This document shows positions 3,395 to 36,742 of a stretch of DNA of 64,000 nucleotides, in pieces (the stretch's first letter is position 1; each line of letters opens with the position of its first letter). The DNA comes from an uncultured Verrucomicrobiae bacterium (GTDB taxonomy: Bacteria > Verrucomicrobiota > Verrucomicrobiia > Limisphaerales > Palsa-1400): assembly GCA_963702845.1 (NCBI GenBank), contig OY969763.1, positions 5,472,001 through 5,536,000 of the forward strand, written 5' to 3'. Position numbers and translations under genes: made by a program. Below the pieces are notes generated by a model. That model was not told where the DNA came from, ran no database searches, and worked only from the letters and a program-made list of their open reading frames with translations.

Positions 3395-3438
3395 TTTACA
3401 GGCTAGTCACCATCTGGCCTGCAAAGTAAAAGAAACCC

Positions 3439-4416: not shown

Positions 4417-4417
4417 A

Positions 4418-5270: not shown

Positions 5271-5277
5271 GCACGCC

Positions 5278-6129: not shown

Positions 6130-6137
6130 AAAGCTCT

Positions 6138-6794: not shown

Positions 6795-7471
6795 GCCGAA
6801 CGATCCTGATTGTTGATGACGAGCCGGATGCTCTTGAACTGGTTGCCTACAACCTCAAACAAGCTGGTTACAACGTCGTGGCCGCGAAAGATGGAGCGGA
6901 AGCGTTGGAGAAAGTGAGAAGCACCGCCCCCGACCTGATCGTGCTCGACGTCATGCTGCCGGAGATGGATGGGTTTGCCCTGTGCAGGGTTTTTAAGGGG
7001 GCTCCAGTCACGGCGGGTATTCCAATAATCATGCTCACCGCAAAAGCAGCCGAGATCGATCGCGTCCTGGGACTCGAACTCGGTGCTGACGATTACGTCA
7101 CGAAACCCTTTAGTCCGCGCGAGCTGCTGCTGCGCGTGAAAAAATTGTTACAGCGCAGCGCGGGTGGCGACAGTGGAGATCAATACAGATTCAGTAAACT
7201 CGTCATCGACGTCCCGCGCCACCTTGTCACGGTTGAGCGTCAAAAAGTCGAACTCACCGCAACAGAATTCAAGTTGTTGCTCTACTTGATCGAAGCGCGC
7301 GGCGCGGTCCGCACGCGTGAGCAGCTTCTCACACAGGTTTGGAACTACGAAAAATACGTCGACACGCGCACGGTGGATACGCACATGCGCCGGCTGCGCG
7401 ACAAACTCGGAGCCGCTGCGCAATATATTCAGACCACCCGCGGGGTCGGTTATCGCTTCGTGACTGAATGA
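6791..7471 (+). CDS. phoB: OmpR-family response regulator PhoB
   Basis: Receiver plus winged helix (RTVDTHMRRLRDKLG, RGVGY); located in pst operon. Confidence 0.85.
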   Translation: MSRTILIVDDEPDALELVAYNLKQAGYNVVAAKDGAEALEKVRSTAPDLIVLDVMLPEMDGFALCRVFKGAPVTAGIPIIMLTAKAAEIDRVLGLELGADDYVTKPFSPRELLLRVKKLLQRSAGGDSGDQYRFSKLVIDVPRHLVTVERQKVELTATEFKLLLYLIEARGAVRTREQLLTQVWNYEKYVDTRTVDTHMRRLRDKLGAAAQYIQTTRGVGYRFVTE

Positions 7472-8646
7472 TGTGGCCACTCGCAACATGTCTCGCGCTC
7501 GCTTTGGCGTTCGTGATCTATCTCCGCGAACGGCGAAGAACGCGCGACCTTCAACGCAGTCACGAAAAGCAACTCGCTACGTTGCGCGAGCAACACAAGA
7601 GCACGATCGACAAAATCCAGGCCCAGCAAAAGGCGCTCCTTAACAGCATGACTGATGGGTTGCTCGTGCTCGACGACCGAGGTGCCATTCAGATCACCAA
7701 CCGGGCTCTTCACGAATTTTTTACCGTTGCCGACGGCCTCGCTGGAAAAACTGTCTTGGAAGCATTTCGCCTCCACGAACTCGCCGAGATTGTCGATCGC
7801 CTCAAATCGCAATCACAGGTTCTGGATTACGAGGTAGAAGTTCCCGGCCTAAAGAGCCGTTGGGTTTACGTCAATGCCGCGACGATCGTTGGCGATCACA
7901 ATGAGCACTTGGGCGCGGTGCTTATCTTTCATGACGTTACGCGCCTGAAAACTCTGGAAAACACGCGTCGCGAATTCGTCGCCAATGTCAGTCACGAACT
8001 GCGCACGCCTCTGTCCATGATCAAGGGCTTTGCTGAAACATTGCTCGGCGGCGCGATGCAGGATCCTGAAGTTTCCACCAAATTCCTGCAAACCATCGAA
8101 AAACATGCCGACCGCCTTGCGCACCTGATCGAAGACCTCCTCACCATTTCCGAATTAGAGAGCGGCGACACCAGCCTGAGCATGCGTCCTGTGCATATCG
8201 TGCAACTGGTCGATGCTGTGTTCGACGACCTGCGCTCGCGCGCAGCCGTTCAGGAGATTGAATTGCGAAACGAGGTGAGTCCGGAAACCATTGTGGAAGG
8301 TGACAACGATCGGCTGAAACAAGTTTTTTGGAACCTTATCGAAAACGCAGTCAAATACGGAAAAAAAGGAGGGCAAGTCGCCGTCGCGACACAACCCGAT
8401 GACAATCAATTTATCCGCGTGATGGTGAGCGATAACGGTCGCGGCATTCCTGCGGACGCTCTGCCGAGAATATTCGAGCGGTTCTATCGCGTTGACAAAG
8501 CGCGCTCACGGGAAAGCGGCGGAACAGGCCTGGGACTCGCCATCGTCAAACACATTGTGCAAAGCCATGGCGGAAAAGTCTGGGCTGAGAGCGCAGTTGG
8601 TTGCGGTACAACATTTTGTTTCACTATCAGGGTTAGCCCTAATTGA
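7468..8646 (+). CDS. phoR: Sensor histidine kinase PhoR
   Basis: TM, PAS, EFVANVSHELRTPL H-box, FERFYRVDKARSR, GTGLGLAIVKH. Confidence 0.9.
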   Translation: MMWPLATCLALALAFVIYLRERRRTRDLQRSHEKQLATLREQHKSTIDKIQAQQKALLNSMTDGLLVLDDRGAIQITNRALHEFFTVADGLAGKTVLEAFRLHELAEIVDRLKSQSQVLDYEVEVPGLKSRWVYVNAATIVGDHNEHLGAVLIFHDVTRLKTLENTRREFVANVSHELRTPLSMIKGFAETLLGGAMQDPEVSTKFLQTIEKHADRLAHLIEDLLTISELESGDTSLSMRPVHIVQLVDAVFDDLRSRAAVQEIELRNEVSPETIVEGDNDRLKQVFWNLIENAVKYGKKGGQVAVATQPDDNQFIRVMVSDNGRGIPADALPRIFERFYRVDKARSRESGGTGLGLAIVKHIVQSHGGKVWAESAVGCGTTFCFTIRVSPN

Positions 8647-20877: not shown

Positions 20878-21234
20878 ATGACAATCTTAACGGACGTTTC
20901 ATCGGCGCTGCTGCGACGGGCGGTTCAATTGAAGGAGCAAATCGAGGGACTGGAGAAAGAGTTGAATAACATTCTCGGTCAAACCAGCCCTAAGCGCAGC
21001 ATGGCGATGACGCGAAGCCGCCCGGGTATCAGTCCGGCTGGACGCGCGCGGATTGTCGCCGCACAAAAACGCCGCTGGGCGATGCATCGGGCCCAGGCCA
21101 AAGCCGCAACCCGATCCAGCAGCAGCGCGCGCATAGCAACAAAAGCACCGAAAGGTGGCATCCCCCCCCAACTACGCGCCAAATTGGCCGCCCAGGCAAA
21201 AGCTCGTTGGGCCAAAGTTAAGTCGATGGGCTGA
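20878..21234 (+). CDS. Small basic protein, putative nucleoid-associated
   Basis: N-terminal coiled coil plus two R/K/A-rich ..AAQ.(R/A)RWA units. Confidence 0.7.
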   Translation: MTILTDVSSALLRRAVQLKEQIEGLEKELNNILGQTSPKRSMAMTRSRPGISPAGRARIVAAQKRRWAMHRAQAKAATRSSSSARIATKAPKGGIPPQLRAKLAAQAKARWAKVKSMG

Positions 21235-21530: not shown

Positions 21531-21896
21531 CTCGAATCACCGCCCCAACCCGCGCCTGATTCACGGTGGAGATGATAAGAGTTATGTTAAATGACGGAAT
21601 TCAAAAAAGAGTTTTTAAATGGATTAGCGCGCCTTCAGACAGCCTGGAACATTGATGTCAATTAGTCCACGACAGAGCCGGGTGCGGTAACACTGAATTA
21701 AAAAACGATTTCCCTTGGATTACCGGCACTTCAGACAATGAGCGCCCCGTTGTGTCAAGTATTACACGACAGAGCTTTTACGGTTTTCCCTGAAAACAGA
21801 ACCGGCGGAACCCCGATTGTTGTTTTTGTCAAATAGTTCACTGTGGCGTTGTCCCATGAAAACCCACGACGAGTGGCCAAGAACCTTTGTGCCGCC

Positions 21897-21959
21897 ACGA
21901 TGTCTTGTACCGTTTGCAGGCCGGTGCTCGAGATCGTCTCCATAACAAAAGCAGCCTGC
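21897..21959 (+). ncRNA. Candidate leader pseudoknot, GH25 copy 1
   Basis: Hairpin with loop GCAGGC (21916-21921) complementary to GCCTGC (21954-21959). Confidence 0.55.
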
Positions 21960-21985
21960 CGACAAAAAGCAAAAAACAAAAAGCA

Positions 21986-22745
21986 ATGAAAACGATCATT
22001 AAAACCTCGTTAGGGTTGGTTGCGGGATTGGCGCTGTCGTTTACCGGCATGCAAGCCAAAGCTAACAACACGACCCACAGTCTCCTCGGCATTGATGTCT
22101 CCAGCTATCAAGGTTTCGTCACATGGGCAGCGTCCATGGTGACGGCGTAGCGTTCGCATTCGCCCGCGCCACTGAAGGAACCGCCAGCAACGACTCGGAT
22201 TTCTCCGGCAACATGAGCCGCGGCAAAAGCGCTGGTGTGAAATGGGCGCTTATCACTTCGCCTATCCAGCCGAAGGGTGCCCCAGCGTGCAGGCCAATCA
22301 CTTCTGGTCTATCGCCGGCGGCAAAATCACCGCTGACGGCAAATCAGTCATGCCGATGGTGGATTGCGAAGAATTCACTGGTGTTGGCTGCTCCGAAGGC
22401 ACCTACACCACCTGGTACAATGATTGGGCGACAGACCTCAAGACTCATTCTTCTGGCCTGCGTCCTGTCATCTATGTCAGCGCCTGCAATGCGTCTCACT
22501 TGACCACCGGCATCGCGGACTTGGGTGCATGGATTGCCGACTACAATGGCGGCAACCTGTATACCGGCAACCCATGGACCACCTGCTGTGGTGACTGCCG
22601 CTGGGGTTCCACCTCCTGCAACAACAACACCTGGACCTACTGGCAGGTCAGCTCCACTGGAGCGATCAGCGGTATCTCCGGCAACGTCGACCTCGATGCC
22701 TACAATGGCACCTTGGCCCAGTTGACCTCCTGGCAAGGTGTCTAA
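21986..22745 (+). CDS. Secreted GH25 muramidase copy 1 (two 1-nt deletions near 22127 and 22241)
   Basis: Signal peptide, GIDVSSYQG, DCE acid motif, NVDLD; mature region nearly identical to copy 2. Confidence 0.85.
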
Positions 22746-22760
22746 TCTAGTTTGAAGCAA

Positions 22761-22790
22761 GCCCGCGCGAGGCCAAAACCTCGCGCGGGT
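22761..22790 (+). terminator. Terminator hairpin after GH25 copy 1
   Basis: CCCGCGCGAGG...CCTCGCGCGGG. Confidence 0.7.
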
Positions 22791-22932
22791 CTCACATTGT
22801 CGAACCCATAAGTCGTCACAATCAACAAAAAGCAAAAAGCGCCTGAACCCAACAGGCATTTAAGCTGTTCGTTTGAAATTTTTTCAGTAGCGAAACTAAG
22901 TGCGTTAGTGATCTCTGAGTTTGAGTCCAGAG

Positions 22933-22999
22933 CGCGTGCTTTGGCGGCCTTGCAGGAGGACGCTTAAGTCCGTGAACCAAACTAAAAAACAACCTGCAA
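22933..22999 (+). ncRNA. Candidate leader pseudoknot, GH25 copy 2
   Basis: TTGCAGG (22950-22956) complementary to CCTGCAA (22993-22999). Confidence 0.55.
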
Positions 23000-23020
23000 T
23001 GACGGAAAGATAACAATAAA

Positions 23021-23785
23021 ATGAAACGCAGTACTCTAGTTACATACGCACTTGGCATTGTTGCCTCCGCAGCCCTTCTCGGTGCTACGGAAGTTCGCGC
23101 TAACAACACGACCCACAGCCTTCTCGGCATCGACGTCTCCAGCTATCAAGGTTTCATCACCTGGAGCAGCGTCAAAGGTGACGGCGTTGAGTTCGCATTC
23201 GCCCGCGCCACTGAAGGAACCGCCAGCAACGACTCGGATTTCTCCGGAAACATGACCCGCGGCAAAAGCGCTGGTGTGAAGATGGGCGCTTATCACTTCG
23301 CCTATCCAGCCGAAGGGTGCCCCAGCGTGCAGGCCAATCACTTCTGGTCTATCGCCGGCGGCAAAATCACCGCTGACGGCAAATCAGTCATGCCGATGGT
23401 GGATTGCGAAGAATTCACTGGTGTTGGCTGCTCCGAAGGCACCTACACCACCTGGTACAATGATTGGGCAACAGACCTCAAGACTCATTCTTCTGGCCTG
23501 CGTCCTGTCATCTATGTCAGCGCCTGCAATGCGTCTCACTTGACCACCGGCATCGCGGACTTGGGTGCATGGATTGCCGACTACAATGGCGGCAACCTGT
23601 ATACCGGCAACCCATGGACCACCTGCTGTGGTGACTGCCGCTGGGGTTCCACCTCCTGCAACAACAACACCTGGACCTACTGGCAGGTCAGCTCCACTGG
23701 AGCGATCAGCGGTATCTCCGGCAACGTCGACCTCGATGCCTACAATGGCACCTTGGCTGACTTGACGTCCTGGCAGGGTGTGTAA
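23021..23785 (+). CDS. Secreted GH25 muramidase copy 2
   Basis: GIDVS, ARATEG, GAYHF, MVDCEE, YWQ.SS.G...GISGNVDLD. Confidence 0.9.
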   Translation: MKRSTLVTYALGIVASAALLGATEVRANNTTHSLLGIDVSSYQGFITWSSVKGDGVEFAFARATEGTASNDSDFSGNMTRGKSAGVKMGAYHFAYPAEGCPSVQANHFWSIAGGKITADGKSVMPMVDCEEFTGVGCSEGTYTTWYNDWATDLKTHSSGLRPVIYVSACNASHLTTGIADLGAWIADYNGGNLYTGNPWTTCCGDCRWGSTSCNNNTWTYWQVSSTGAISGISGNVDLDAYNGTLADLTSWQGV

Positions 23786-23810
23786 TCCTGACCTGACTGT
23801 TTGTTAATTC

Positions 23811-23843
23811 AACCCGCGCGGATGAAAGTCCGCGCGGGTTTTT
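23811..23843 (+). terminator. Terminator after GH25 copy 2
   Basis: AACCCGCGCGGA...TCCGCGCGGGTTTTT. Confidence 0.8.
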
Positions 23844-24164
23844 ACATTCCTATCAGATTTTCGTCGACAGCCCATGTCAACAGAACCGCTACAAATCACG
23901 TTCTTTCTCACGCTCAATGAGCGTGATGTTCTTTCTCGAAAGCAGTATCAGGTTTCACCGCGAATTATTGTCAATTTAAGTTCGACACACCAATTACGCT
24001 TTTTGCTGAGTAGCGAATCCGCATAGACCTGATTGTTCCTCGGAACGGAAAAGTCCATTGTCTTGCCCGTTACCCGAGCGATAAAAAAGCACTGAACCCA
24101 CCAGCGCTCCTCCAGCGGTCCATTCGCGTGGATCTCAGTCTGATTTGAATTTGAGTCCAGAGTG

Positions 24165-24224
24165 CGTGTTCTGTACGGCGCGCAGGAAGACGTTACAGAA
24201 CACGATAAAACAAAAAAATCCTGC
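24165..24224 (+). ncRNA. Candidate leader pseudoknot, GH25 copy 3
   Basis: 11-bp stem CGTGTTCTGTA/TACAGAACACG; GCAGGA (24182-24187) complementary to TCCTGC (24219-24224). Confidence 0.6.
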
Positions 24225-24242
24225 AATGACGGAAACCACTAA

Positions 24243-25004
24243 ATGAAACGTAATCTAATACAAAAGATCCTCGGCATCTGTGCGGCTGCAACACTGCTCG
24301 GAACCACCGGCGCTCGCGCCAATAACACCACCCACAGCCTCCTCGGCGTGGACGTTTCGAGCTATCAAGGCTCAATCAACTGGAGCAGTGTTTACGGTGA
24401 CGGCGTCCGCTTCGCGTCTGCCAAAGCCACCGAGAGCACCGGTTACACCGATGCCTATTTCGCTGGCAACATGAACAACGGCAAAGCCGCAGGCTTGCAG
24501 ATGTGTGCATACCACTTCGCCCATCCTGAATCCACCTGTCCAAGTGCACAAGTGAACCACTTCTGGTCTGTCGCCGGCAGCAAGATCACCGCAGACGGCA
24601 AATCGGTTTATCCGATGGTCGACTGCGAAGTCTTCAGCGGCGTCACCTGCAGTGAAGGCACCTACACCACGTGGTACAACGACTACTCCACTGACCTGAA
24701 GGCCAAGACGGCCAACTTCCTGCACCCGGTCATCTACGTCAGCGCCTGCGCTGCCAGCCACCTGAGCACCGCGATCACGCTCTCGGCCTGGATCGCCGAC
24801 TACAACGGCGAGAACCTCTACACCGGTAATCCTTGGACCACCTGCTGCGGCGACGACCGTTGGGGTTCCACCTCCTGCAACGCCAACACCTGGACCTACT
24901 GGCAAGTCAGCAGCACCGGCGCTATCAGCGGCATCTCCGGCAACGTTGACCTCGATGCCTACAACGGCACCTTGGCTGACTTGATCTCGTGGCAAGGAGT
25001 GTAA
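24243..25004 (+). CDS. Secreted GH25 muramidase copy 3
   Basis: Same GH25 motifs (GVDVS, KATE, AYHF, DCE, VDLD). Confidence 0.9.
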   Translation: MKRNLIQKILGICAAATLLGTTGARANNTTHSLLGVDVSSYQGSINWSSVYGDGVRFASAKATESTGYTDAYFAGNMNNGKAAGLQMCAYHFAHPESTCPSAQVNHFWSVAGSKITADGKSVYPMVDCEVFSGVTCSEGTYTTWYNDYSTDLKAKTANFLHPVIYVSACAASHLSTAITLSAWIADYNGENLYTGNPWTTCCGDDRWGSTSCNANTWTYWQVSSTGAISGISGNVDLDAYNGTLADLISWQGV

Positions 25005-25028
25005 TCTGATCTGAGTTTGTTATACTGC

Positions 25029-25059
25029 ACCCGCGCGGACGCAAGTTCGCGCGGGTTTT
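25029..25059 (+). terminator. Terminator after GH25 copy 3
   Basis: ACCCGCGCGGAC-GCAA-GTTCGCGCGGGTTTT. Confidence 0.8.
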
Positions 25060-25225
25060 CTCTTTTCGGAAGGCCGGCTGAACACCATGTCAAATTTAAC
25101 ACGACACAGCACCTCAGCCTTTTGCTCACCGCCGAACCGGCTGATGCCTGATTGTTTGATTGTACCACAAAGTCCAAAGTGGGCTGTTCCCAAAACCTAA
25201 CGCCGGCAAACGATTGTCGTTCGCC

Positions 25226-25282
25226 CGAAGTTTGTCTCTGGTTGCAGACTGGACAAAGTTCGCCTACTAAAAGCACCTGCAA
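25226..25282 (+). ncRNA. Candidate leader pseudoknot, GH25 copy 4
   Basis: Stem CGAAGTTTGTC/GACAAAGTTCG; TTGCAG (25242-25247) complementary to CTGCAA (25277-25282). Confidence 0.6.
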
Positions 25283-25302
25283 AAAAGCAAAAAACAAAAA
25301 GC

Positions 25303-26052
25303 ATGAAAACCACTAAATTACTCCTTGCTGCGCTCGCGTTGTCCCTCGGGGCTACTCTGGCGCAAGCTAACAATACGACTCACAGTCTCCTCGGAATCGA
25401 CGTGTCGCACTATCAAGGCGGCATCACCTGGAGCAGTGTTTACGGCGACGGCGTCCGTTATACCTTTGCCAAAGCTGTCGAAGGCACCGGTTATACCGAC
25501 CCTAACTTCAGCTCTTACGCCAGCGGTGCTAAAGCAGCTGGTTTGAAGTTTGGCGCCTATGACTTCTGCCATCCAGAATCCGGCTGCCCAAGTGCCGAAG
25601 TCAACCACTTCTGGTCGGTTGCTGGTGGCAAGATCACCGCTGACGGCAAGTCCCTCTATCCGATGCTCGACTTGGAAGTGTTCTCCGGTGTTGCTTGCGG
25701 TGAAGGCACCTACACCGGATGGTCCAACGACTGGTCAACCGATGTCAAAGCGAAGACCGGCAACTTCCTGCATCCGGTTATCTATATCAGCGCATGCAAT
25801 TGCTCCCACCTGAGCACTGCTATCACGCTGTCTGCCTGGATTGCGGACTACAACGGCCAGAACCTCTACACCGGTAACCCGTGGAGCACCTGCTGCAGCT
25901 ACGACCGTTGGGGCTCCACCGCCTGCAATGCCAACACATGGACCTACTGGCAGGTCAGCTCGACCGGTCGCATCAGCGGCATCTCCGGCAACGTTGACCT
26001 CGATGCCTACAACGGCACCTTGGCTGAATTAACGTCCTGGCAAGGTGTTTAG
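25303..26052 (+). CDS. Secreted GH25 muramidase copy 4
   Basis: GIDVSHYQG, KAVEG, MLDLE, VDLD. Confidence 0.9.
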   Translation: MKTTKLLLAALALSLGATLAQANNTTHSLLGIDVSHYQGGITWSSVYGDGVRYTFAKAVEGTGYTDPNFSSYASGAKAAGLKFGAYDFCHPESGCPSAEVNHFWSVAGGKITADGKSLYPMLDLEVFSGVACGEGTYTGWSNDWSTDVKAKTGNFLHPVIYISACNCSHLSTAITLSAWIADYNGQNLYTGNPWSTCCSYDRWGSTACNANTWTYWQVSSTGRISGISGNVDLDAYNGTLAELTSWQGV

Positions 26053-26082
26053 TCTGGCAACCTGAAGCTGTTCCTATACTGC

Positions 26083-26115
26083 AACCCGCGCGGGTGAAAA
26101 CTCGCGCGGGTTTTT
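26083..26115 (+). terminator. Terminator after GH25 copy 4
   Basis: AACCCGCGCGGGT...ACTCGCGCGGGTTTTT. Confidence 0.8.
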
Positions 26116-26281
26116 ACGTATTCAAAACGTGCTTATCGCACTGTCGATAACAACGTGACAGGGCAGTTCAGCTTATTACTGACTGCTGAATCGACTGACG
26201 CCTGATTGTATATTTTACAGCAAGGCTCAGAGTCGCACTGTTCCAAAAAAAACCAACGTCGGCAAACTATTGTCGTTTGCC

Positions 26282-26340
26282 CGAAGTTTGTCTCTGGTTG
26301 CAGACTGGACAAATTTCGCCTCACTAAAAAGTAACTGCAA
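26282..26340 (+). ncRNA. Candidate leader pseudoknot, GH25 copy 5
   Basis: Stem CGAAGTTTGTC/GACAAATTTCG; TTGCAG (26298-26303) complementary to CTGCAA (26335-26340). Confidence 0.6.
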
Positions 26341-26358
26341 TTAAGCAAAAAACAGAAA

Positions 26359-27123
26359 ATGAAACGCACTACTCTAGTCCAAAATGCCCTTGGCATCGTC
26401 GTCGTCGCCGCCCTCACCTTGGGCGCGACCTCCCTCCGAGCTAACAATACCACGCACAGCCTCTTGGGCGTGGACGTCTCAAGCTATCAAGGCTCCATCA
26501 CCTGGAGCAGCGTCTACGGTGATGGCGTCCGTTTCGCGTCTGCCAAAGCCACCGAAAGCACCGGTTATACCGATGCTTATTTCTCCGGCAACATGAACAA
26601 CGGCAAAGCCGCCGGTTTGCAAATGTGCGCGTATCACTTCGCCCATCCCGAATCCACCTGCCCAAGCGCGCAAGTGAATCACTTCTGGGCAGTCGCCGGT
26701 AGTAAAATCACTGCGGACGGCAAGTCGATCTACCCGATGGTTGATTGCGAAGTCTTCAGCGGCGTGACCTGCGGTGAAGGCACATACAATACCTGGTACA
26801 ATGACTATGCTGCCGATCTCAAAGGCAAAACCTCATTGTTCCTGCACCCAGTCCTCTACACCAGCGCGTGCAGTGCCTGCCATCTGAGCAGCGCCACCAC
26901 GCTCTCGGCTTGGATCGCGGACTACAACGGCCAGAACCTCTACACTGGTAACCCTTGGACGACGTGCTGCTCCTGTAACGTCTGGGGCGGCGGTTGCAAT
27001 GCCAACACCTGGACCTACTGGCAGGTTAGCAGCACCGGTGCCATCAGCGGCATCTCCGGTAACGTCGACCTCGATGCCTATAACGGCACCTTGGCTGAAT
27101 TGGTGTCCTGGCAGGGTGTCTAA
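26359..27123 (+). CDS. Secreted GH25 muramidase copy 5
   Basis: Same GH25 motifs. Confidence 0.9.
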   Translation: MKRTTLVQNALGIVVVAALTLGATSLRANNTTHSLLGVDVSSYQGSITWSSVYGDGVRFASAKATESTGYTDAYFSGNMNNGKAAGLQMCAYHFAHPESTCPSAQVNHFWAVAGSKITADGKSIYPMVDCEVFSGVTCGEGTYNTWYNDYAADLKGKTSLFLHPVLYTSACSACHLSSATTLSAWIADYNGQNLYTGNPWTTCCSCNVWGGGCNANTWTYWQVSSTGAISGISGNVDLDAYNGTLAELVSWQGV

Positions 27124-27153
27124 TCCTTCCCTGACTACATTTCAAAACTGCAC

Positions 27154-27183
27154 CCCGCGCGAAGCAACACTCGCGCGGGTTTT
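27154..27183 (+). terminator. Terminator after GH25 copy 5
   Basis: CCCGCGCGA...TCGCGCGGGTTTT. Confidence 0.75.
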
Positions 27184-27313
27184 CATTTTTGCACTGTCAA
27201 GCGAACCATTACTTGTATGTCAATAATACATCTACACGCCAAATCGGGGTTTGCCTGATTGTGGTTTTGTGGGAAATGTAGAAACTCACCTCGTTCCCAA
27301 CACGAGTCCAGAG

Positions 27314-27380
27314 CGCGTGTTTCATTTTGCTTGCAGGAGCGATTTGAAAATCCGTGAAGTAAATCAGTAAATCTCCTGCA
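27314..27380 (+). ncRNA. Candidate leader pseudoknot, GH25 copy 6
   Basis: TGCAGGAG (27332-27339) complementary to CTCCTGCA (27373-27380). Confidence 0.55.
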
Positions 27381-27398
27381 TTGACCGAAAGTAGTATA

Positions 27399-28166
27399 AT
27401 GAAACGCAGTAATCTGATCAAAAACGTACTTGGACTAGTAGCTGGCGTCGCCCTCCTGGGGGCTTCGGAAGCACGCGCAAACAATACCACCCACAGCCTT
27501 CTCGGCATTGACGTCTCCAGTTTTCAAGGTTTCGTCACCTGGAGCAGCGTCAATGGTGATGGCGTTGCCTTCGCGTTCGCTCGCGCTACTGAAGGAACCG
27601 CGAGCAATGATTCCGATTTCTCCGGAAACATGACCCGAGGTAAAAGCGCAGGCGTGAAAATGGGCGCTTATCACTTCGCCTATCCAGCCGAAGGCTGCCC
27701 CTCAGTCCAAGCCAGTCACTTCTGGACTCAAGCCGGTAGCAAAATCACGGCTGATGGCAAGTCGCTCATGCCGATGGTTGACTGTGAAGAGTTCACTGGT
27801 ATCGGCTGCTCTGAAGGCACCTACACCACCTGGTACAATGATTGGGCCGCAGACCTCAAGACCCACACGACCTTGACCCTGCGTCCAGTTATTTATGTCA
27901 GCGCCTGCAATGCCTCGTTTTTGACTACCGGCATCTCGGGTTTGGGCGCTTGGATCGCCGATTACAATGGCCAAAACCTCTACACCGGCAACCCATGGAG
28001 CACCTGCTGCGGCGACGACCGTTGGGGTTCCACCTCCTGCAATGCCAACACCTGGACCTACTGGCAGGTTAGCAGCACGGGTGCCATCAGCGGCATCTCC
28101 GGTAACGTCGATCTCGATGCCTATAACGGCACCTTGGCTGATTTGACCTCCTGGCAAGGTGTGTAA
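27399..28166 (+). CDS. Secreted GH25 muramidase copy 6
   Basis: MKRS signal peptide as in copy 2; same GH25 motifs. Confidence 0.9.
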   Translation: MKRSNLIKNVLGLVAGVALLGASEARANNTTHSLLGIDVSSFQGFVTWSSVNGDGVAFAFARATEGTASNDSDFSGNMTRGKSAGVKMGAYHFAYPAEGCPSVQASHFWTQAGSKITADGKSLMPMVDCEEFTGIGCSEGTYTTWYNDWAADLKTHTTLTLRPVIYVSACNASFLTTGISGLGAWIADYNGQNLYTGNPWSTCCGDDRWGSTSCNANTWTYWQVSSTGAISGISGNVDLDAYNGTLADLTSWQGV

Positions 28167-28223
28167 GAAACAGTTTGAAGCGTCTGTTCTAATATAAAGC
28201 GTTAGGACAAGCGTCGGATTCAT

Positions 28224-28259
28224 AACCCGCGCGAGTTTTAAAATTCGCGCGGGTTTTTT
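28224..28259 (+). terminator. Terminator after GH25 copy 6
   Basis: AACCCGCGCGAGTTTTAAAATTCGCGCGGGTTTTTT. Confidence 0.85.
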
Positions 28260-28340: not shown

Positions 28341-29311
28341 ATGAAAAGTGTCCGCTATTAGCAATTTTCGTCCTGAATTCAGTTTTGATTTCGGCCTTGC
28401 TGATCCGCTTGGACCCGAATGCGCCGGTTAAACCGCCGCCTACGCCACCGAAACCTGATCGCGAGAAGACGAGTTATGCGATCGGCATGAATCTCGGCCT
28501 GCAGCGCAAACAGGCCAAGTCCGACGCCGATATCGAAGCCTTCGCCAAAGGGCTGAAGGAAACTTTTCGAAAATAAACCGACCGAGATTCCTTTCACCGA
28601 CACGATGCAGGCCATCAATGCCATGCGCACACAGCGGCACCAACGCCACCGCGCAGGAGAAGCGAATGTTTGCTTACGCCATGGGCATGCGCTGGGGCAA
28701 TCAACTTGAAAGGAAAATGCTCCCGATTGTGATACCGCTGTTGTTGTTCGGCCATAAAAGATGTCGCTGACGGCAAGCCGACTAAGATCAAGGAAGCCGA
28801 AATGCAACCTTTGCTCGAACAGGGCCGGGAGTGGTCTCTTTATATCAAAGGCGCAAAAAATCGTGAGGCAGGCGCGGCTTTTCTGGCTGCGAATGTCCAA
28901 GCAACCCGGCGTGCACAATCTCCCCGATGGCTTGCAATATCGAGTCATCAAAGAAGGCACCGGCCGGGCGGCCAGCACCCTTGGATGAACACGAAGTCCT
29001 CTTTATCAGATACAAAGGAACATTCATTGATGGTCGTGAATTTGATCATCATAACCATTTCCCGAAAAATCTCCTCGGTGGCTGGCCTGCCTGGCTTGAA
29101 GCCCTCAAACGCATGAAAGTTGGCGACAAATGGCAGGTTTATTCTCCGCCCGAGTATTCATTTGGCCGCGACGGCGACCCGTCTCGTCAATGTCGGTCCG
29201 GATACCACAGTCGTTTGGGATTTGGAAATTCGCGAAATCGTTGGTGACGATGATCCACGCTTGGGCACCGGCCGGCTCGGTCACGGTATTGCCGGACGCG
29301 ACAATCCGTAA
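28341..29311 (+). CDS. FKBP-type peptidyl-prolyl isomerase, multiply frameshifted (error-ridden CDS or pseudogene)
   Basis: Fragments KTSYAIGMNLG, LPDGLQYRVIKEGTG, YKGTFIDGREFD, EALKRMKVGDKW in different frames. Confidence 0.75.
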
Positions 29312-29397
29312 ATCGAGGTGAAAGAGTGAAGTGAAGCTGTATCCGTAAATCTACCAATTGTCGCTCTCCAATCTCATTCTGACTCACTCCTGCAGCC

Positions 29398-30393
29398 ATG
29401 ATCAAAGTTGAAAATCTCACCAAAGCGTTCGGCGCGAAAGTCGCCGTTAACAACGTCTCTTTTACCGTCGAGCGTGGTGAAGTGCTGGGATTTCTTGGCC
29501 CTAACGGCGCCGGCAAATCCACCACCATGCGCATGATCACCGGCTTTATCCCGCCGACTGATGGAAAAGTTTCCGTCGGTGGACACGACGTGGTTGAAAA
29601 TCCGATCGCCGCAAAGAAGCTCATCGGTTATTTGCCTGAAGCCGCGCCCGGTTTATGTCGACATGACGGTGAAAAGTTTTCTTACTTTCTGCGCCGAACT
29701 CAGCGGCATGCGCGGCGATGCGTTCAAGAGAGCTGTCAATCGCGCCGTCGAACTCTGCTTCCTCGAACCGGTCCTTTATCAAAGTGTCGACACACTGTCC
29801 AAAGGCTATCGCCATCGCACTTGTCTCGCGCAGTCCATCGTTCATGACCCGCCGGTCCTCGTCATGGACGAACCGACCGACGGACTTGACCCGAATCAAA
29901 AGCACGAAATCCGCACTCTCATTCGCGGATGGGTGAAAACAAAGCGATCATTTTCTCCACTCACATTCTGGAAGAAGTCGAAGCCGTTTGTTCGCGCGCC
30001 ATCATCATCGATCGCGGCCAGATTGTTGCCTCCGGAACCCCTGAAGAATTGAAGCGTCGCTCCGAACTCGGTGGTGCGGTCCGTATTTCCGTTCGCGGTA
30101 TCACCGCCCCGCAATTCGCCGACCGCCTCTCGGCCATGCCTCAAGTGCGCAAAGTCGCTGTCCTCGCCGGGAAAAACGGTGACGCCACCGTCCGCGTCTA
30201 TCCGCAGGACGGAATCGGCAAAGATCTCAACGGCGATTTTGTTCGCGGCTTGCTTGAAGCTTCGAGCTGCTGGCAAGTCCTCGATGTTCGCACCGAAGAA
30301 GGCCGTCTGGACGAAGTCTTCCGCAACCTCACGTGGTCCGACACGGTAAGAAAACCGAGCCGGCCGCGGCCGTCGCTGCTTAATAGAAACTGA
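29398..30393 (+). CDS. ABC transporter ATPase, GldA-like (frameshifted)
   Basis: GPNGAGKSTTMR, LSKGYR, MDEPTDGLDPNQ, STHILEEV. Confidence 0.85.
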
Positions 30394-30540
30394 ATCCGCT
30401 AAGAAGACCGCCCCATTTCTGCAAAACTAAGCATGATGCATAAATCGACATCGCGACAAATCGTAGCGCAGGCGAGGCCGACGTCGGCTTTCTAACCTGC
30501 GTCGCGTCGTTGCGCCTTCAGTCGTCGAATTTCTGCGGAT

Positions 30541-30633
30541 GCTACTGCAAACGGGTGCAATTTCTGATGATTTTGCACCAATTGCACCAGTCGCACTACT
30601 TGCACCAGTTGCAGTAGTTTTTTTCCCGTTTTT
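30541..30633 (+). repeat. CTACTGC...GCAGTAG element, copy A (five 9-nt units followed by T-tract)
   Basis: TTGCACCAA TTGCACCAG TCGCACTAC TTGCACCAG TTGCAGTAG TTTTTTT; similar to 59803-60016 on the minus strand. Confidence 0.75.
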
Positions 30634-30694
30634 GAAACCGCACGCACGCGTCGTTCCCTCAACATTTAACCAAATCACCTCTCTTTCTCCGAAA

Positions 30695-33307
30695 ATGAAC
30701 TCTCTCGGAAACATCAAAACCGTCGCCAAACGCGAACTCGCCAGTTATCTCACGGCGCCGCTCGCTTATATTTTCGTCGTCATCTTTCTCGCCCTCACCG
30801 GATTTTTCACCTTCTCCATGGAGGAAAATCTGTTCCAGATGGGCCAGGCGAGTTTCTACTCGTTCTTCAAATGGCACCCATGGCTCTACCTCGTTTTCGT
30901 CCCCTGCGTCGGCATGCGACTCTGGGCCGAAGAACGCCGCGTCGGCACCATTGAACTCCTGCTCACGAAACCAATCACCCCGTGGCAAGCCATCGTCGGT
31001 AAATTTCTCGCCTCCTGGATTTTCCTCGGCTGCGCGTTGTTCCTGACCTTCCCAGTCGTCATCACCGTCAATTACCTCGGCTCGCCCGACAACGGCCTGA
31101 TTCTCGCCACTTACATGGGCAGCTTTTTGATGGCCGGTACTTATCTGGCGATCAGTTGCATGACTTCCGCGATGACCCGCAATCAGGTCATCAGCTTCAT
31201 TCTCTCCCTTGTCATCTGCATGTTCCTCGTCATGTGCGGCACGCCGACGGTTACTGATTACCTTACTCGTTTTGACAAAGCCATGGCTGGTCGATCTCGT
31301 TGCTTCGCTCAGCGTCATGACGCATTTCAAGCCTTTCACCGAGGGCTGGATCGATTCGCGCGACATCATTTTCTTCATCTTGATGATGGGCTTCGTCCTG
31401 TTCACCACCGCGGTCATTCTCCGCAGTTATCAAGCGGCGAGCGATAAGCTGACCAAAGGCAAAACTTCGAGCGCTTGCTATTATTCCACCGGCGGCGTGG
31501 TCGGGATGTTTGTCGTTATGGTGGCACTTTATATTATCAGCAGCGCTGGTCAATCTGCGCGCGGACGTAACTGCTGAAAAAGTTCACACGCTCACCCCGG
31601 GAACGAGGAAAATTCTGGCGCGCCTCGATTCGCGCGTCACCATGCGCTTCTATTGCAGCCAGGGCGAAACTGGTATGCCGCCCCAATTCAAAGCCTACGC
31701 CCATCGCGTTCAGGATTTGCTCAGTGAATATGTCGACGAATCCAAAGGCAAACTGCTGCTGGAAAAATATGATCCGCAGCCCGATTCCGAATCCGAAAGC
31801 GCCGCGACCTTGAACGGGATCGAAGGTCGTCCCGGACCGAACGGCGACAAAGTTTTTCTCGGGCTTGTTCGTCACTTTGTTGAACGAAAAATTTGCTATC
31901 CCTTTCCTGTCGCCTGATCGCGAGCGTTTGCTTGAATACGATATTTCCCGTGCCATTTCCCGCGTCGCTAGCCAAACCCGTCCCGCGATTGGTATTATGA
32001 GCGGACTGAAGGTTTTCGGTGAAGCATTCAACCCGATGATGCACGCTGACCAGGCACGCCGTGAAGACTGGGCTTTCGTTGCGGAATTGAAAAAAGATTT
32101 TCTGGTCGTTTCCGTCCCGCTCAAGCGACCAATATCGATGCGCATATCAAAATGCTCGTCGTGTATCATCCCGTCAACATCACGGACGCGTCGCAATATG
32201 CGATCGATCAGTTCATTATGAACGTGGCGGCAGAGTCATGGCCTTTCTCGATCCGCACGCCTACTTCGATCAGAACCACGACCGGATGAAGAAATTTTAA
32301 TATCAGCGGCGACAACGCAGCCAAATCAACTTTGGACAAATTGCTGAAAGCCTGGGGCCTCGAACATGGACACCGATCACGTGCTCGCGGATCGCTCCTT
32401 CGCAGGCCACAACAATCAAACCGGCGACATGATGCCGACATTATTGATGATTACTGCCGCCGGTATTAACTCTAAAGAAGCGGCCACCAGCCAAATCGAT
32501 AACTTATTCGTTCCCTTCGCGGGGGTGTTCACCGGCAAACCTGTTGATGGCTTGCAACTCACGCCGCTCATTTCCTCTTCCTCAAATTCGGAGATGGTTG
32601 ACTCGCTCATAGCCACCGCCGGGCTCGACATTCTTAAAGCATTCAAACCGTCAAACCAGGAGTTCCCGATTGCGCTGCGTTTGAATGGCAAATTTAAAAC
32701 CGCATTCCCGACAAACGGTGGTTTGAAAGAATCTACTGCTGCCGGTGAAGTCATTCTCGTTGCCGATACCGATATGCTGAACGACAAGATCACCGTGCGC
32801 ATTGAGGAAGTAATGGGCCACAGGGTCACGCGCCCGCTCAACGGCAATTTGAACCTGTTCCAAAGTCTCGTCGAACAGACGTCCGGTGACGACGACCTCA
32901 TTACCTCGCGCAATCGTGCCAGCATGAACCGTCCCTTCACCCGTGTGAAAGATATGGAAGCCCGCGCCGGTCGCGTTTGGGAAGAGAAGATGCGCGAACT
33001 CGAAACCAAGAAGCGCGAGATGAAAAAGAAAGTTGACGAATTGCAGGCACAAAGCAAGCCGGGCCAAAACGTTATTCTCACCTCCCAACAGGAGCGCGAA
33101 CTCGACGAGTACCAGCGCGAGCTCGCCGTTGTCGATAAAGAGTTGAAGAAAGTCGTGAAGAATTTGCGCAAAGACACCGATGCTCTCGAGTTCCGCGCCA
33201 AGGTGCTGAACATCGGCGCCATGCCGGTGATCGTTGCACTGTCCGGAATGTGCCTGGCAGTTGTCAAAACCCGCCGTCGCACGGCATTGTTGAAACGGGT
33301 AATATGA
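30695..33307 (+). CDS. GldF-like permease apparently fused to GldG-like ABC auxiliary component (several frameshifts)
   Basis: KRELASY, MRLWAEERRVGTIELLLT; then DVTAEKVHTLTPGT, LEYDISRAI, VADTDML, C-terminal coiled coil and TM. Confidence 0.75.
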
Positions 33308-34455
33308 GCCGGAAACAATTTATTCTTGTTCTGCTGGCGCTCTGCCTTATCGGCGGAGCGGGCTTGGCGCTTTTCAAACGCAACCAGAAGACCTGGAATG
33401 TCCGCGAAGCCAAGGTCGGCGAGTTCGTGATTCCGGATTTTCACCCCAACGACGTCGCCGCGATTCACATCAAAGAGGAATCCGATTTCCGCGTCATCCG
33501 CACGAACGGCATCTGGCGTGTGCCGGATCGTTACGATTATCCTGCAAACTTCAGACAGGTCAGCGAGCTTCTGCTAGATATCAAAAAGTTGAAAGTCATG
33601 CAGTCCGAAGTCGTCGGCCAATCCTTACGTGGCCGCGTAGATTTGAACGATCCCGGCAAGGGTCCGGGCTCTGGTGAGTTGGTTGAATTCGAAGACGCCA
33701 ACGGAAAAGTCATCGCCTCCCTATTGCTTGGCCGCAGACACGACCGTAAACAAAATGAAAACGAACCGCTTGGTATGCACGGCTGGTTCGATGGCCGTTA
33801 TGTTTTAATCCCGAGTGAACCGAATAATATTCTGCTGGTTCCGAACGAACTGCCCTCGGCTGCGCCCGACCCGGGCAGCTGGGTTGATCACACCTTTTTC
33901 AAAATCGAAAACCCAAAATTCATCAGCCTGGTTTCACCTGATCCCCAGAAGAATTGGCAACTCACCCGCGAAACGCCTACGGCAAAATGGACGATGGAAG
34001 GTTTGAGCGCCGGCGAATCGCTCGACATCGAAAAACTCGCGCAGGCAACTGAGATATGGGCGTTCCCGACTTTCCTAGACATGGGTTCGAACTTGCCCCC
34101 AGCGGTCACTGGTTTGGATAAGCCGACGATTATCACGGTCGTCACGTTCGACAACCTTGCCTACACATTGAAAGTTGGAAAGCAGACCCCAGCCGGGAAT
34201 CACATTATGACCGTGTCGGTTGCCGCGGACTTTTCGGCCGGCCGCAGTCCAAGCCCGGATGAAACCCTCGAGGATAAGAAGCGACTCGATGAAGAATTTC
34301 AGGCGAAAAAGAAAACATTGGAGGAAATAGTTGCCAAAGACCGCGCTTTCGCTTCGTGGATGTTCGTTGTCGATAGCTGGCTGGATGTAGTTCTCCGCGA
34401 CCGCAGTCAGTTGGTTACGGCCAAAGCCGCAACCCAGGAAGCCAGCCGGTTTTAA
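33304..34455 (+). CDS. DUF4340-like protein
   Basis: N-terminal anchor, WRV..RYDYPAN; usual position after GldG-like genes. Confidence 0.7.
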   Translation: MSRKQFILVLLALCLIGGAGLALFKRNQKTWNVREAKVGEFVIPDFHPNDVAAIHIKEESDFRVIRTNGIWRVPDRYDYPANFRQVSELLLDIKKLKVMQSEVVGQSLRGRVDLNDPGKGPGSGELVEFEDANGKVIASLLLGRRHDRKQNENEPLGMHGWFDGRYVLIPSEPNNILLVPNELPSAAPDPGSWVDHTFFKIENPKFISLVSPDPQKNWQLTRETPTAKWTMEGLSAGESLDIEKLAQATEIWAFPTFLDMGSNLPPAVTGLDKPTIITVVTFDNLAYTLKVGKQTPAGNHIMTVSVAADFSAGRSPSPDETLEDKKRLDEEFQAKKKTLEEIVAKDRAFASWMFVVDSWLDVVLRDRSQLVTAKAATQEASRF

Positions 34456-34484: not shown

Positions 34485-35486
34485 CTACTGCTTAAAGACG
34501 CTAATTGTCACCGGCACTTCCATCAAAGGCAAAGACTGCAGCGAAGTTTCCAGCGTCACCTTTCCAGTAACAAACCCGTGCGGCACTTCGTCAATCTTCA
34601 GCACCAGATCAAAAAGTTTTCCCGGCTCCTTCGCCACCACCCGCACACTCGTCCCTTTGATGCTGCTTTTCGCGCTCTTGATTTCGACGTCGTTCCCAAG
34701 AATCGACTTGAGCTGCACGCTTTTGGAGAGCGCCGTCGCCGGATACGCTTTCAAATCATTTCCCTGGTCTGCGAACATCCAATAAACTCCTTTTGGGGTC
34801 GCCGATAATTCCCCTTCAATTTCGCCAATCACCGTAATCGTGCGCACAGGTGTGTTCCCGTATTGCGAGTTCCACAGTTTCAACGTGCCCGTAAAATGCG
34901 GTGGCACTTGCGTTGAGCGTTTCACGGTTACATTGAGCAATCCTGCCTTCTCGTCCACGGCCGCACTGATCCATTCGTGTGATGTCGTGATGCGATCGAT
35001 GCCGAGCGGCTTGTCGTCAGCGCGGGTGATCGTGAGGCCTTCGGTCGCTTCGCCTTTGTCCGCCGGCACAGATACGCGGATGCTCTTGTCGGCAATCTGA
35101 TAAACCTGGTCGTATTCCAGTTGCGTCTTCAACGTGATGCTCGCTGTCTTTGGATCATTCGAAACGATCGTGATCGTTTTCGCGCCCTTCACCATCGGAT
35201 GATCCAAATTGATCTTGTAAGTGACAACGCCACTCTCGCCTGGAGCGAGTGTGTCTGGGGTTTCTTTTGCGTCGGTGCAACCGCAACTTGGTTGGGGCGG
35301 ACCAAGCTTCAGAACGTCATCGCCAACATTTTTGAATTTGAATGACCCGGAAACGGATTCAACTCCGGCCAGATGTCCGAAGTCGAAAAAGTTCGTTTCA
35401 AACTGAATCTTTGGAATGGCCTGCAATGCCGCAGGCCAAGCCAGGCAAGCCACAGTGGCAACGAGACAAAGAGAACGAATCTTCAT
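34485..35486 (-). CDS. Secreted DUF1573-domain protein
   Basis: FDFG...FKFKNVG...PSCGCT...LAPGE...VSNDP. Confidence 0.85.
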   Translation of the reverse strand: MKIRSLCLVATVACLAWPAALQAIPKIQFETNFFDFGHLAGVESVSGSFKFKNVGDDVLKLGPPQPSCGCTDAKETPDTLAPGESGVVTYKINLDHPMVKGAKTITIVSNDPKTASITLKTQLEYDQVYQIADKSIRVSVPADKGEATEGLTITRADDKPLGIDRITTSHEWISAAVDEKAGLLNVTVKRSTQVPPHFTGTLKLWNSQYGNTPVRTITVIGEIEGELSATPKGVYWMFADQGNDLKAYPATALSKSVQLKSILGNDVEIKSAKSSIKGTSVRVVAKEPGKLFDLVLKIDEVPHGFVTGKVTLETSLQSLPLMEVPVTISVFKQ

Positions 35487-35494
35487 ACACGCGG

Positions 35495-36574
35495 TTATGG
35501 CGCCATGATGTGCAATGGAACCTCAAGTTTTGGAACCGACTCCAGCGTCGTCTCGAGGGTCACTTTGCCATCAATGAGGTTATGTGGGAGTTTTTCGAAT
35601 TTGATCACGAGGTCGAAAATCCTTCCGCCTTTGGGGACGACCTTCACGTTCAAGCCTTGGACATCAGTCGAGATCTTTTTGAATTCCACTGGCTTGCCCA
35701 GCGCAGAAACCAATTGAATGTGCCGCGACAAAGCTTGCTCCGAGTATTTAGTGATGTCATCACCCAGGTCCGCGAAAGCCCATTCCATCCGGGGCGGATC
35801 AGCGGTGATTTCGCCCTGAATCTGCCCACGAAGTTCGACTATTTTTGCCGAGTGATCGGATTGTTGCCCATTCCACAGCTCAACCTTTTCGTTAAAAAAC
35901 GATGGGGCATCCGGCGAGCGATGCACTGTGACAATAACGCGTCCCATGCTTTCCAAATGTTTCTGATTTGCATCGAACGGCGAACCGCCCGTCGGATCAT
36001 AGGCCGCGTCGAATTCAGCGGTGATCCATTGCTGTGAGGTGGAAATGTGATCGATGCCGAGGGCTTTGCCGTCCATGCGGTTGACGATAAACGTCGTCTG
36101 CACCTCGGCTTTGCCGGGCCGCAACAGCACGTTTAGTTTCGGCGGAGTTGTTTCGAACAACGGCGTGTAATCTAGCTGAATCGTGAGTTCGAGATCCGGG
36201 TTTTCGGGATCGTTCGAATGGACCTTGATAAAGCGTTGACCGCTGACGGCGTGGTCCATCTTGATACTGTAGGTCACTTGGCCTTCTGCACCGGGCGCCA
36301 GCTTGTCAGGAGAGATTTTCGCCTCGGTGCAATCGCAACTTGCCTGCGGGGCATCGAGCTTCAGTTCGGCAGTGCCGAGATTCTTGAACTTGAACGAGCC
36401 GATCAGTTTTTCCGAGGACGTGACTTTGCCGAAATCGAAGAAGTTCGTCTGAAATTTAATTTTCGGCGCTGACGGACTGGCCGCAGGAGCAGCGGTGTCA
36501 GCGGCGATGCAGAGGCAGCCGCTGGTCAACCCCAAAGTCATAAGCACAATGGTGCGACAAAGTTTTGTTTTCAT
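35495..36574 (-). CDS. Secreted DUF1573-domain protein (tandem paralog)
   Basis: FDFG...FKNLG...ASCDCT...LAPGAEG...SNDP; collinear with neighbour. Confidence 0.85.
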   Translation of the reverse strand: MKTKLCRTIVLMTLGLTSGCLCIAADTAAPAASPSAPKIKFQTNFFDFGKVTSSEKLIGSFKFKNLGTAELKLDAPQASCDCTEAKISPDKLAPGAEGQVTYSIKMDHAVSGQRFIKVHSNDPENPDLELTIQLDYTPLFETTPPKLNVLLRPGKAEVQTTFIVNRMDGKALGIDHISTSQQWITAEFDAAYDPTGGSPFDANQKHLESMGRVIVTVHRSPDAPSFFNEKVELWNGQQSDHSAKIVELRGQIQGEITADPPRMEWAFADLGDDITKYSEQALSRHIQLVSALGKPVEFKKISTDVQGLNVKVVPKGGRIFDLVIKFEKLPHNLIDGKVTLETTLESVPKLEVPLHIMAP

Positions 36575-36742
36575 GGTTAAGGTGCGTTCCATCATAAAGC
36601 AACTAGCGCCTGTAAGTGAACAAAATTTCGGTGCATACCTCGCAAATAGGGAAAACCATTAAGATGCGGTCGCGCTTCATCGTTGAAATTTATTGGCAGG
36701 AACGAAGCAAACGTTCAAAATAAGGGACAGTTCACCCGATCC

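Follow-up and report, generated by a model that had tools for sequence, protein, structure and literature searches.

The GH25 family includes single-domain barrel enzymes such as cellosyl (Streptomyces coelicolor lysozyme M1, 1JFX) and the fungal muramidases 2X8R, 6ZMV, and 6ZM8, and one report describes antibacterial use of GH25 enzymes across domains (PMC4241558). Here we analyze six tandem, head-to-tail GH25 paralogs at positions 21986–28166, plus strand, of a 64,000-nucleotide (nt) stretch of an uncultured Verrucomicrobiae bacterium (Limisphaerales, Palsa-1400; GCA_963702845.1, contig OY969763.1, positions 5,472,001–5,536,000), which is referred to as the window. The array copies have the same single-domain barrel as cellosyl but are approximately 34% identical to it, carry 7–10 cysteines, belong to a diderm host, form a six-copy array among 21 family matches in the genome, and are flanked by conserved RNA elements and linked to a chaperone and ATP-binding cassette (ABC) transporter module. 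Their catalytic fold is also that of the phage endolysins Cpl-1, PlyB, and Psm, but the array copies have a signal peptide, lack a binding domain and a holin, and have only one viral-contig relative (28% identity).

To our knowledge, the cargo of GldA/F/G-type ABC transporters has been an open question since their discovery in gliding bacteria. The Flavobacterium GldA, GldF, and GldG proteins are the best NCBIfam matches for the ATPase and permease fusion downstream of the array, and an FKBP-type protein (in Flavobacterium, the peptidyl-prolyl isomerase GldI) travels with both systems. The window module differs in scoring below the family cut-offs, in the usual fusion of its F and G parts, in the addition of DUF4340, in an FKBP with two N-domains and a non-lipoprotein-like signal, and in its linkage to lysozymes instead of gliding genes. 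GldA, GldF, and GldI are described as necessary for envelope protein stability (PMC9127263). The Limisphaerales also possess a housekeeping GldAFG-like/DUF4340 transporter with the same four-part architecture as the lysozyme-linked module; however, it forms a separate clade, its F and G parts are unfused, and neither an FKBP nor a single-domain lysozyme adjoined it in the 16 loci examined.

H-type pseudoknots occur in the SAM-II, SAM-V, and preQ1 riboswitches and in the rpsO leader. The leaders of the array genes are similar in that a hairpin loop is predicted to pair with a downstream strand over an A/C-rich linker near the start codon, but they differ in having no Rfam match, a long P1 stem of variable sequence, and a GAAAG site downstream of the P2 helix instead of inside it, and in being found only before GH25 genes.

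Our preferred explanation, held with about even confidence, is a secreted bacteriolytic system directed against the peptidoglycan of other cells, the enzymes of which would be handled by a dedicated FKBP-ABC-DUF4340 module. We favor it because of the GH25 fold and residues, the expansion of the family, the adhesin-like paralogs, the existence of GH25-free relatives, the raised Amidase_2 counts, the linkage to the module, the U-tract pattern of the 3′ hairpins, and the leader. No published description of the array, the GH25 expansion, the dedicated ABC paralog, or the leader RNA was found in a search that left aside supplements (e.g., RNA motif tables), which could hold the leader.

The array encodes six putative secreted lysozymes

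An initial annotation, made from the sequence alone, described the array as secreted, Cys-rich GH25 muramidases without a cell wall-binding domain and proposed a HMMER search against PF01183. Copies 2–6 are open frames of 249–255 amino acids (aa) that score 99–114 bits against this profile (gathering cut-off, 27), the 3′ part of copy 1 reaches 51.6, and a profile search detected no second domain over its cut-off in copies 2–6. All six copies begin with varied basic/hydrophobic/AxA signal peptides, read by eye, followed by a common predicted mature NNTTHSLLG sequence, and copies 2–6 contain 7–10 Cys each. Cellosyl is the closest solved relative by sequence (E = 2e-26). The cellosyl residues D9, D98/E100, and D198 align with the DVS, DxE, and VDLD motifs that had been noted as intact in the array copies, and we take these residues and their counterparts to be the catalytic acids. 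Among 119 sequences, D101 and D210 are invariant and D11 and E103 are at least 90% conserved. Mature copy 3 was modeled with AlphaFold2 (predicted local distance difference test score, 95.5), and the top Foldseek matches of the model were all GH25 structures (template modeling [TM] scores 0.73–0.76), led by 1JFX (E = 2.7e-20, TM 0.76). Judged by sequence and model, the array proteins are ordinary GH25 members with an atypical TIM-like barrel, and they would hydrolyze the bond between N-acetylmuramic acid (MurNAc) and N-acetylglucosamine (GlcNAc).

The window neighbors of the array are housekeeping genes; no holin or phage genes were found near it, and GH25 relatives on viral contigs were limited to the single distant protein mentioned above. 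A phage endolysin cassette was rejected for these reasons, and the non-phage origin assumed initially is upheld.

As assembled, copy 1 has no open frame: compared with copy 2, it lacks single nucleotides at ~22127 and ~22242. Indels are scattered throughout the assembly (more than one frame is required for 10/90 test genes), and the FKBP, ATPase, and permease genes after the array contain 24 frameshifting indels and one nonsense codon in 1530 codons, with a nonsynonymous-to-synonymous rate ratio (dN/dS) of ~0.05–0.15 compared with the intact locus L108. The combination of many frameshifts, almost no nonsense codons, and a low dN/dS, a pattern that a housekeeping ABC copy shows as well, favors consensus error over decay; the copy 1 deletions are therefore probably assembly errors in a gene that is intact in the cell. 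Separately, both GldAFG-like operons of the host (C1:1267905-1272605 and window 28341–33307) carry a frameshifting indel every ~200–250 nt, far above the genome background.

Such errors, together with copies 1 and 2 differing at one base over ~475 nt, could be taken to mean that the array arose through misassembly or was amplified very recently and matters only for dose. This is extremely unlikely: the copies are 69–93% identical pairwise, their spacers are unique, and other contigs repeat the layout. L036 is colinear with window 21890–23126 (76% over 1249 nt), spans the junction from copy 1 through the spacer to copy 2, and carries both a copy-1-type gene that is intact (252 aa) and the beginning of a second copy, and L031 matches window 25905–27969 at 75%. 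Two or more tandem copies were present in 21 of the 96 fetched loci, near-duplicate loci included. The array exists as a tandem locus, with its junctions repeated on independent contigs. The earlier view of six self-contained units is correct with respect to the six paralogs but doubtful for copies 1 and 2, given the lack of a U tract after the 3′ hairpin of copy 1.

The array is old and belongs to a wider GH25 expansion

In a tree of 53 mature GH25 sequences, copies 2 and 6 shared a starred branch, copies 3 and 5 belonged to a different group, and copy 4 joined three foreign proteins in a starred branch of their own; copies 3 and 4 were nearest to rows of other organisms, and copy 1 was assigned with copy 2 by sequence. 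Synonymous divergence (dS) between intact copies is 0.68–1.18 and dN/dS is 0.08–0.25. By these measures the array is old, with three subtypes under purifying selection, and the initial description of it as dosage-amplified and diversifying has to be revised. The near-identity of copies 1 and 2 is recent: their leaders and signal peptides differ, yet there is one mismatch over 22243–22717, which suggests gene conversion.

The host genome (G000) has 21 PF01183 matches, its close relatives G001–G003 have 17, 9, and 11, and the other 37 of 41 genomes have 0–2. No GH25 match was found in 26/41 relatives, and the family is therefore dispensable for growth in the order. Amidase_2 matches number 3–5 in G000–G003 compared with 0–2 in the remaining 17 of the 21 genomes searched, and the lysozyme clade of the array is present in 6/31 genomes within the family. 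The dispersed GH25 paralogs of the host comprise four single-domain genes plus multi-domain forms (Ig, LamG, DUF346, FG-GAP). By gene content, this expansion appears to be far above housekeeping need. Checking copy number and synteny in relatives, as had been recommended, thus replaces the picture of a single array with one of a 21-match expansion in a lineage where tandem copies are common; the downstream module is also kept. The secreted bacteriolytic arsenal proposed at the outset is retained as the most likely reading, without its amplification component.

The same counts bear on whether the enzymes could instead be periplasmic autolysins that remodel the host's own wall, activated or positioned by the ABC-DUF4340 paralog in the way that FtsEX activates and positions division hydrolases. 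The Sec signal peptides would deliver them to the periplasm, and the C-terminal module of several multi-domain paralogs is absent from the single-domain copies. A DUF4340 protein is reported to be essential in Verrucomicrobium spinosum (PMC12283558), which would point to envelope housekeeping. We nevertheless consider this reading unlikely, because so many relatives have no GH25 match and 21 matches with lectin-like or adhesin-like add-ons exceed remodeling needs. Also against this reading, the V. spinosum report describes the glucosamine of that species' peptidoglycan as largely non-acetylated and links this to lysozyme resistance, a statement that concerns neither GH25 enzymes nor this organism (PMC12283558).

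Further three-gene clusters of multi-domain GH25 genes lie at C1:47647-54147 (Ig/LamG) and C1:1787215-1792800 (DUF346 repeats), and two genes of the second cluster end in a CCCGCGC/GCGCGGG-type hairpin.

A chaperone and ABC transporter module follows the lysozymes

According to the initial annotation, no obvious immunity gene lies near the array. It overlooked conserved module genes, masked by frameshifts, that begin ~90 nt past the copy 6 hairpin: the broken frames at 28341–34455 correspond to genes that are intact in relatives and encode an FKBP, an ABC ATPase, a fusion of an ABC-2 permease with DUF7088 and ABC_transp_aux, and a DUF4340 protein. The run of ATPase, ABC-2 permease, ABC_transp_aux, and DUF4340 was identified from Pfam matches in L108 and window proteins and from gene order. 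The best NCBIfam matches of the intact L108 proteins were GldA (score 295.9, cut-off 402.6), GldF (175.8, cut-off 288.5), and GldG (105.6, cut-off 389.85); by these scores, the ATPase and the fusion are homologous to Bacteroidota GldA/GldF/GldG but are not equivalog members. DUF4340 has been described as a predicted ABC subunit in SAR11 (PMC13712998).

Synteny was counted over 88 distinct loci filtered by the length of downstream DNA (at least 2.5 kb, n = 20; at least 500 nt, n = 44). In the first set, an FKBP gene lies within 1.9 kb downstream of the lysozyme in 16/20 loci and an ABC ATPase gene within 3.5 kb in 15/20; in the second, FKBP is present in 28/44. ABC trees were built from 30 rows, including two near-duplicates, with L108 (77–81% DNA identity) in place of the window's frameshifted copy. 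The 15 lysozyme-linked ATPases formed one branch (Shimodaira-Hasegawa-like approximate likelihood ratio test [SH-aLRT] 96), as did the 13 linked GldG parts together with one unlabelled same-genus row (SH-aLRT 99), and both branches were separate from those of the G000, G002, G003, and G021 housekeeping copies. The second GldAFG-like/DUF4340 operon of the host is located at C1:1267905-1272605. At L149 (G004:C69), a multi-domain GH25 gene sits ~4 kb from a housekeeping ABC-DUF4340 operon, which may be a remnant of the ancestral linkage.

The linked FKBP has an FKBP_N plus FKBP_C architecture, in which two FKBP_N stretches and a single FKBP_C exceed the cut-off, and Mip and FkpA are its best solved relatives. 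It differs from the housekeeping FKBP in the region after a conserved FD and has an invariant tail glycine and a non-lipoprotein-like signal peptide. The full-length tandem FKBP has its highest scores in G001 and G003, where it is next to lysozymes, and G021 has two single-N-domain FKBP genes next to its lysozyme. A BamJ identity was discarded, as the weak match covers only the common FKBP_C domain (PMC12578637). A membrane-anchored HEAT-like protein of ~405 aa is often encoded between the lysozyme and the FKBP (L041:6874-8109, L073:1138-2346); it belongs to an unnamed Verrucomicrobiota family with homologs in 25/41 genomes, and the host copies are at C1:2338903-2340195 and C1:5276587-5277378.

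The lysozymes could also be an arsenal that leaves by general secretion, with the FKBP-ABC module a co-duplicated neighbor that has no lysozyme-specific role. Many GH25 paralogs have no adjoining module, the GldG-like family occurs in 41/41 genomes irrespective of GH25, and the linked genes have a common history by descent. We regard this as fairly unlikely, however, because the order lysozyme, (HEAT-like), FKBP, ATPase, permease is kept across lysozymes ~45–97% identical to copy 2, the linked FKBP is distinct in architecture and tail glycine, and the linked ABC is separate and often F-G fused. An immunity role, in which the FKBP (with the optional HEAT-like protein) inhibits the lysozymes and the ABC transporter clears stray enzyme, would fit an FKBP gene that is directly downstream and likely co-transcribed, and whose product carries a signal peptide and, in comparison with the housekeeping FKBP, altered FKBP_C residues. 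This appears very unlikely, since the FKBP retains the FkpA/Mip architecture and many of the genomes with HEAT-like homologs lack GH25.

Predicted structured RNA elements flank the lysozyme genes

The initial annotation mentioned a leader for each gene but not its structure. All six array leaders contain a long hairpin (P1) with GCAG in its loop and the complement CUGC 14–18 nt past the stem. The resulting predicted pseudoknot helix (P2) is 6–8 bp and ends 18–26 nt before the ATG, and in most leaders a small hairpin (P0) lies directly upstream of P1. A strict geometry test, designed on the array leaders, was passed by 6/6 of them and by 11 of 1970 leaders genome-wide, seven of which precede GH25 genes. 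A covariance model built from 26 leaders yielded 40 matches among 98 sources; 26 of these matches were training rows, and all 40 were on the strand of the lysozyme. The matches checked precede a GH25 start, and a weak match in L039 is close to the end of a contig. In 41 whole genomes there were six matches, all upstream of GH25 genes. No convincing copy was found before non-GH25 genes by a descriptor scan and nhmmer search of the genome, the model having scored only 107–150 candidates per genome.

Covariation was counted in 34 distinct rows of an alignment fitted to P1, not P2. Paired cells made up 77.7% compared with 69.8% in shuffles, double changes occurred in 14/20 pairs, the covariation score was 0.276 versus 0.156, and 10/11 P1 pairs had changes on both sides. 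In an alignment-free swap test of 39 leaders, with kinship between leaders remaining, P1 arms paired better with their own partners than when crossed (−16.5 versus −11.3 kcal/mol; 0/10000 permutations). By these comparisons, P1 is a conserved structured RNA hairpin with compensatory changes. Four of the five P2 core pairs formed in 33/33 rows and the fifth in 32/33, with one and three double changes. Plain minimum free energy folding of the six leaders gave mixed z-scores (−0.2 to −3.0), and RNAalifold recovered only the 4-pair P2 core from a broad alignment.

There were no Rfam matches for leaders in the array region (E up to 5) or in 18 homologous loci (E up to 3), and neither a terminator nor sequestration of the ribosome-binding site was seen in the predicted leader fold. 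Because the purine-rich GAAAG, a ribosome-binding-like site complementary to the 16S tail, lies outside (downstream of) the fold, the leader is likelier to be a stabilizer or translation enhancer than a switch. A loose pseudoknot finder proved to be unspecific (332/1970 control leaders pass at −18 kcal/mol) and served only for seed choice; the seeds were selected for a GCAG-like core, so the seed set is circular. Identification of the flanking elements as CsrA sites, integron attC sites, or ribozymes was set aside on the basis of consensus features and Rfam. A second leader class (L062, L084, L096, L115, L116, L117, L125) has a hairpin followed by a CTAACCG/CGGTTAG stem around a long A/C-rich loop, and a third (L061 ~93–319; L071) has a long near-perfect hairpin with weak miRNA-family matches below the gathering score.

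Each array gene is followed by a CCCGCGC...GCGCGGG hairpin. The 6.03-Mb genome contains 11 copies of the motif, nine of them directly after GH25 genes, and a relaxed form follows 59/77 homologous genes. Where the next gene is within 60 nt, 15/21 hairpins have three or fewer U residues compared with 7/38 elsewhere, and 24/38 have at least five U residues where it is farther away. A hairpin without a U tract before a close gene fits read-through into the module, and its retention despite likely read-through is what would be expected of an mRNA-stabilizing end. A scan for the sigma-70 consensus revealed no promoter for the array copies. Repeated motifs led by TGTCAA occur at window 21600–21780 and after several hairpins (23876, 25088, 27197); they may be −35 boxes on the minus strand or sites for a regulator.

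Proposed handling and release of the enzymes

Under the bacteriolytic reading, the lysozymes would be exported by Sec and disulfide bonded in the periplasm, where they would be folded, retained, and passed on by the tandem-N-domain FKBP together with the lysozyme-linked ABC-DUF4340 paralog, so that the host's own wall is spared until release. The freed single-domain enzymes could then diffuse and cut MurNAc-GlcNAc bonds in the walls of neighbors or of dead cells, serving nutrition or competition, and the predicted 5′ pseudoknot and the 3′ hairpin may stabilize the mRNA and support high output.

Several observations weigh against this proposal. The GldA/F/G scores are below the NCBIfam cut-offs, and the synteny and common clade are co-inheritance, not physical coupling. 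Of the 44 distinct loci with 500 nt or more of downstream DNA, 11 have neither FKBP nor a HEAT-like gene next, dispersed single-domain paralogs in G000 have no adjoining module, and the G041 lysozyme lacks one on its 3.9-kb contig. The window's own FKBP-ABC module, with its 24 frameshifting indels, could conceivably be decaying. At the RNA level, the sequence of P2 is mostly conserved and its covariation weak (p = 0.085 in the swap test of 39 leaders), and the anchor score was passed by only 39/91 single-domain leaders.

More tentatively, and with more doubt than confidence, we suggest that a soil Limisphaerales lineage became bacteriolytic through a dedicated lysozyme-export pathway in which a duplicated GldAFG-DUF4340 ABC transporter and a single-chain, pseudo-dimeric FKBP have disulfide-rich lysozymes as specific clients, the expression of which would be governed by a new pseudoknot RNA class. 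If so, the widespread GldAFG-DUF4340 family, to which no cargo is assigned, would be an ATP-driven periplasmic protein-handling machine with the lysozymes as its first assayable substrate. A dispensable ABC paralog co-inherited with an easily measured enzyme makes the question of transporter cargo directly testable. The locus also points to an unrecognized bacteriolytic or necromass-feeding lifestyle in soil Verrucomicrobiota, and supplies compact lysozymes, probably disulfide stabilized, and a candidate structured RNA absent from Rfam.

Other features of the region

Table 1. Positions of the lysozyme genes, RNA elements, and neighboring genes in the window
Feature	Position	Strand	Remarks
118-aa basic hypothetical protein	20878–21234	+	Upstream neighbor, also in L035, L135, L092
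Copy 1 leader (P0, P1, P2)	21873–21959	+	P2 21916–21921 with 21954–21959, GCAGGC/GCCUGC
GH25 copy 1 (subtype B)	21986–22745	+	Two 1-nt deletions; intact 252-aa counterpart in L036
Copy 1 3′ hairpin CCCGCGC/GCGCGGG	22762–22789	+	No U tract
Copy 2 leader	22913–22999	+	P2 22950–22956 with 22993–22999
GH25 copy 2, 254 aa (subtype B)	23021–23785	+	
Copy 2 3′ hairpin	23813–23838	+	U tract
Copy 3 leader	24134–24224	+	P2 24182–24187 with 24219–24224
GH25 copy 3, 253 aa (subtype A)	24243–25004	+	AlphaFold2 model
Copy 3 3′ hairpin	25030–25055	+	U tract
Putative promoter-like element (CCTGATTG ... TCCCAA)	25147–25193	+	Repeated at 26201, 27254 and in L031, L110, L111
Copy 4 leader	25205–25282	+	P2 25242–25247 with 25277–25282
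GH25 copy 4, 249 aa (subtype C)	25303–26052	+	
Copy 4 3′ hairpin	26085–26110	+	U tract
Copy 5 leader	26261–26340	+	P2 26298–26303 with 26335–26340
GH25 copy 5, 254 aa (subtype A)	26359–27123	+	
Copy 5 3′ hairpin	27154–27179	+	U tract
Copy 6 leader	27298–27380	+	P2 27332–27339 with 27373–27380
GH25 copy 6, 255 aa (subtype B)	27399–28166	+	
Copy 6 3′ hairpin	28226–28253	+	U tract
FKBP-type chaperone, two FKBP_N and altered FKBP_C	28341–29311	+	Frameshifted here; intact in L108, L110
GldA-like ABC ATPase	29398–30393 (end approximate)	+	Frameshifted here
GldF-like ABC-2 permease fused to GldG-like DUF7088/ABC_transp_aux	30683–33307 (start approximate)	+	Frameshifted here
DUF4340 membrane-anchored protein	33250–34455	+	Pfam
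Two DUF1573 Ig-like secreted-type proteins	34485–36595	−	Near the module also in L041, L046, L113, L151, L153

The 118-aa protein encoded before the array is Ala/Arg rich, and its Atlas look-alikes are unnamed Verrucomicrobiota clusters; a nucleoid-associated role is possible but a guess. A phosphate-transport-like gene run occupies window ~2376–8646, and its permease region likewise appears split into short frames.

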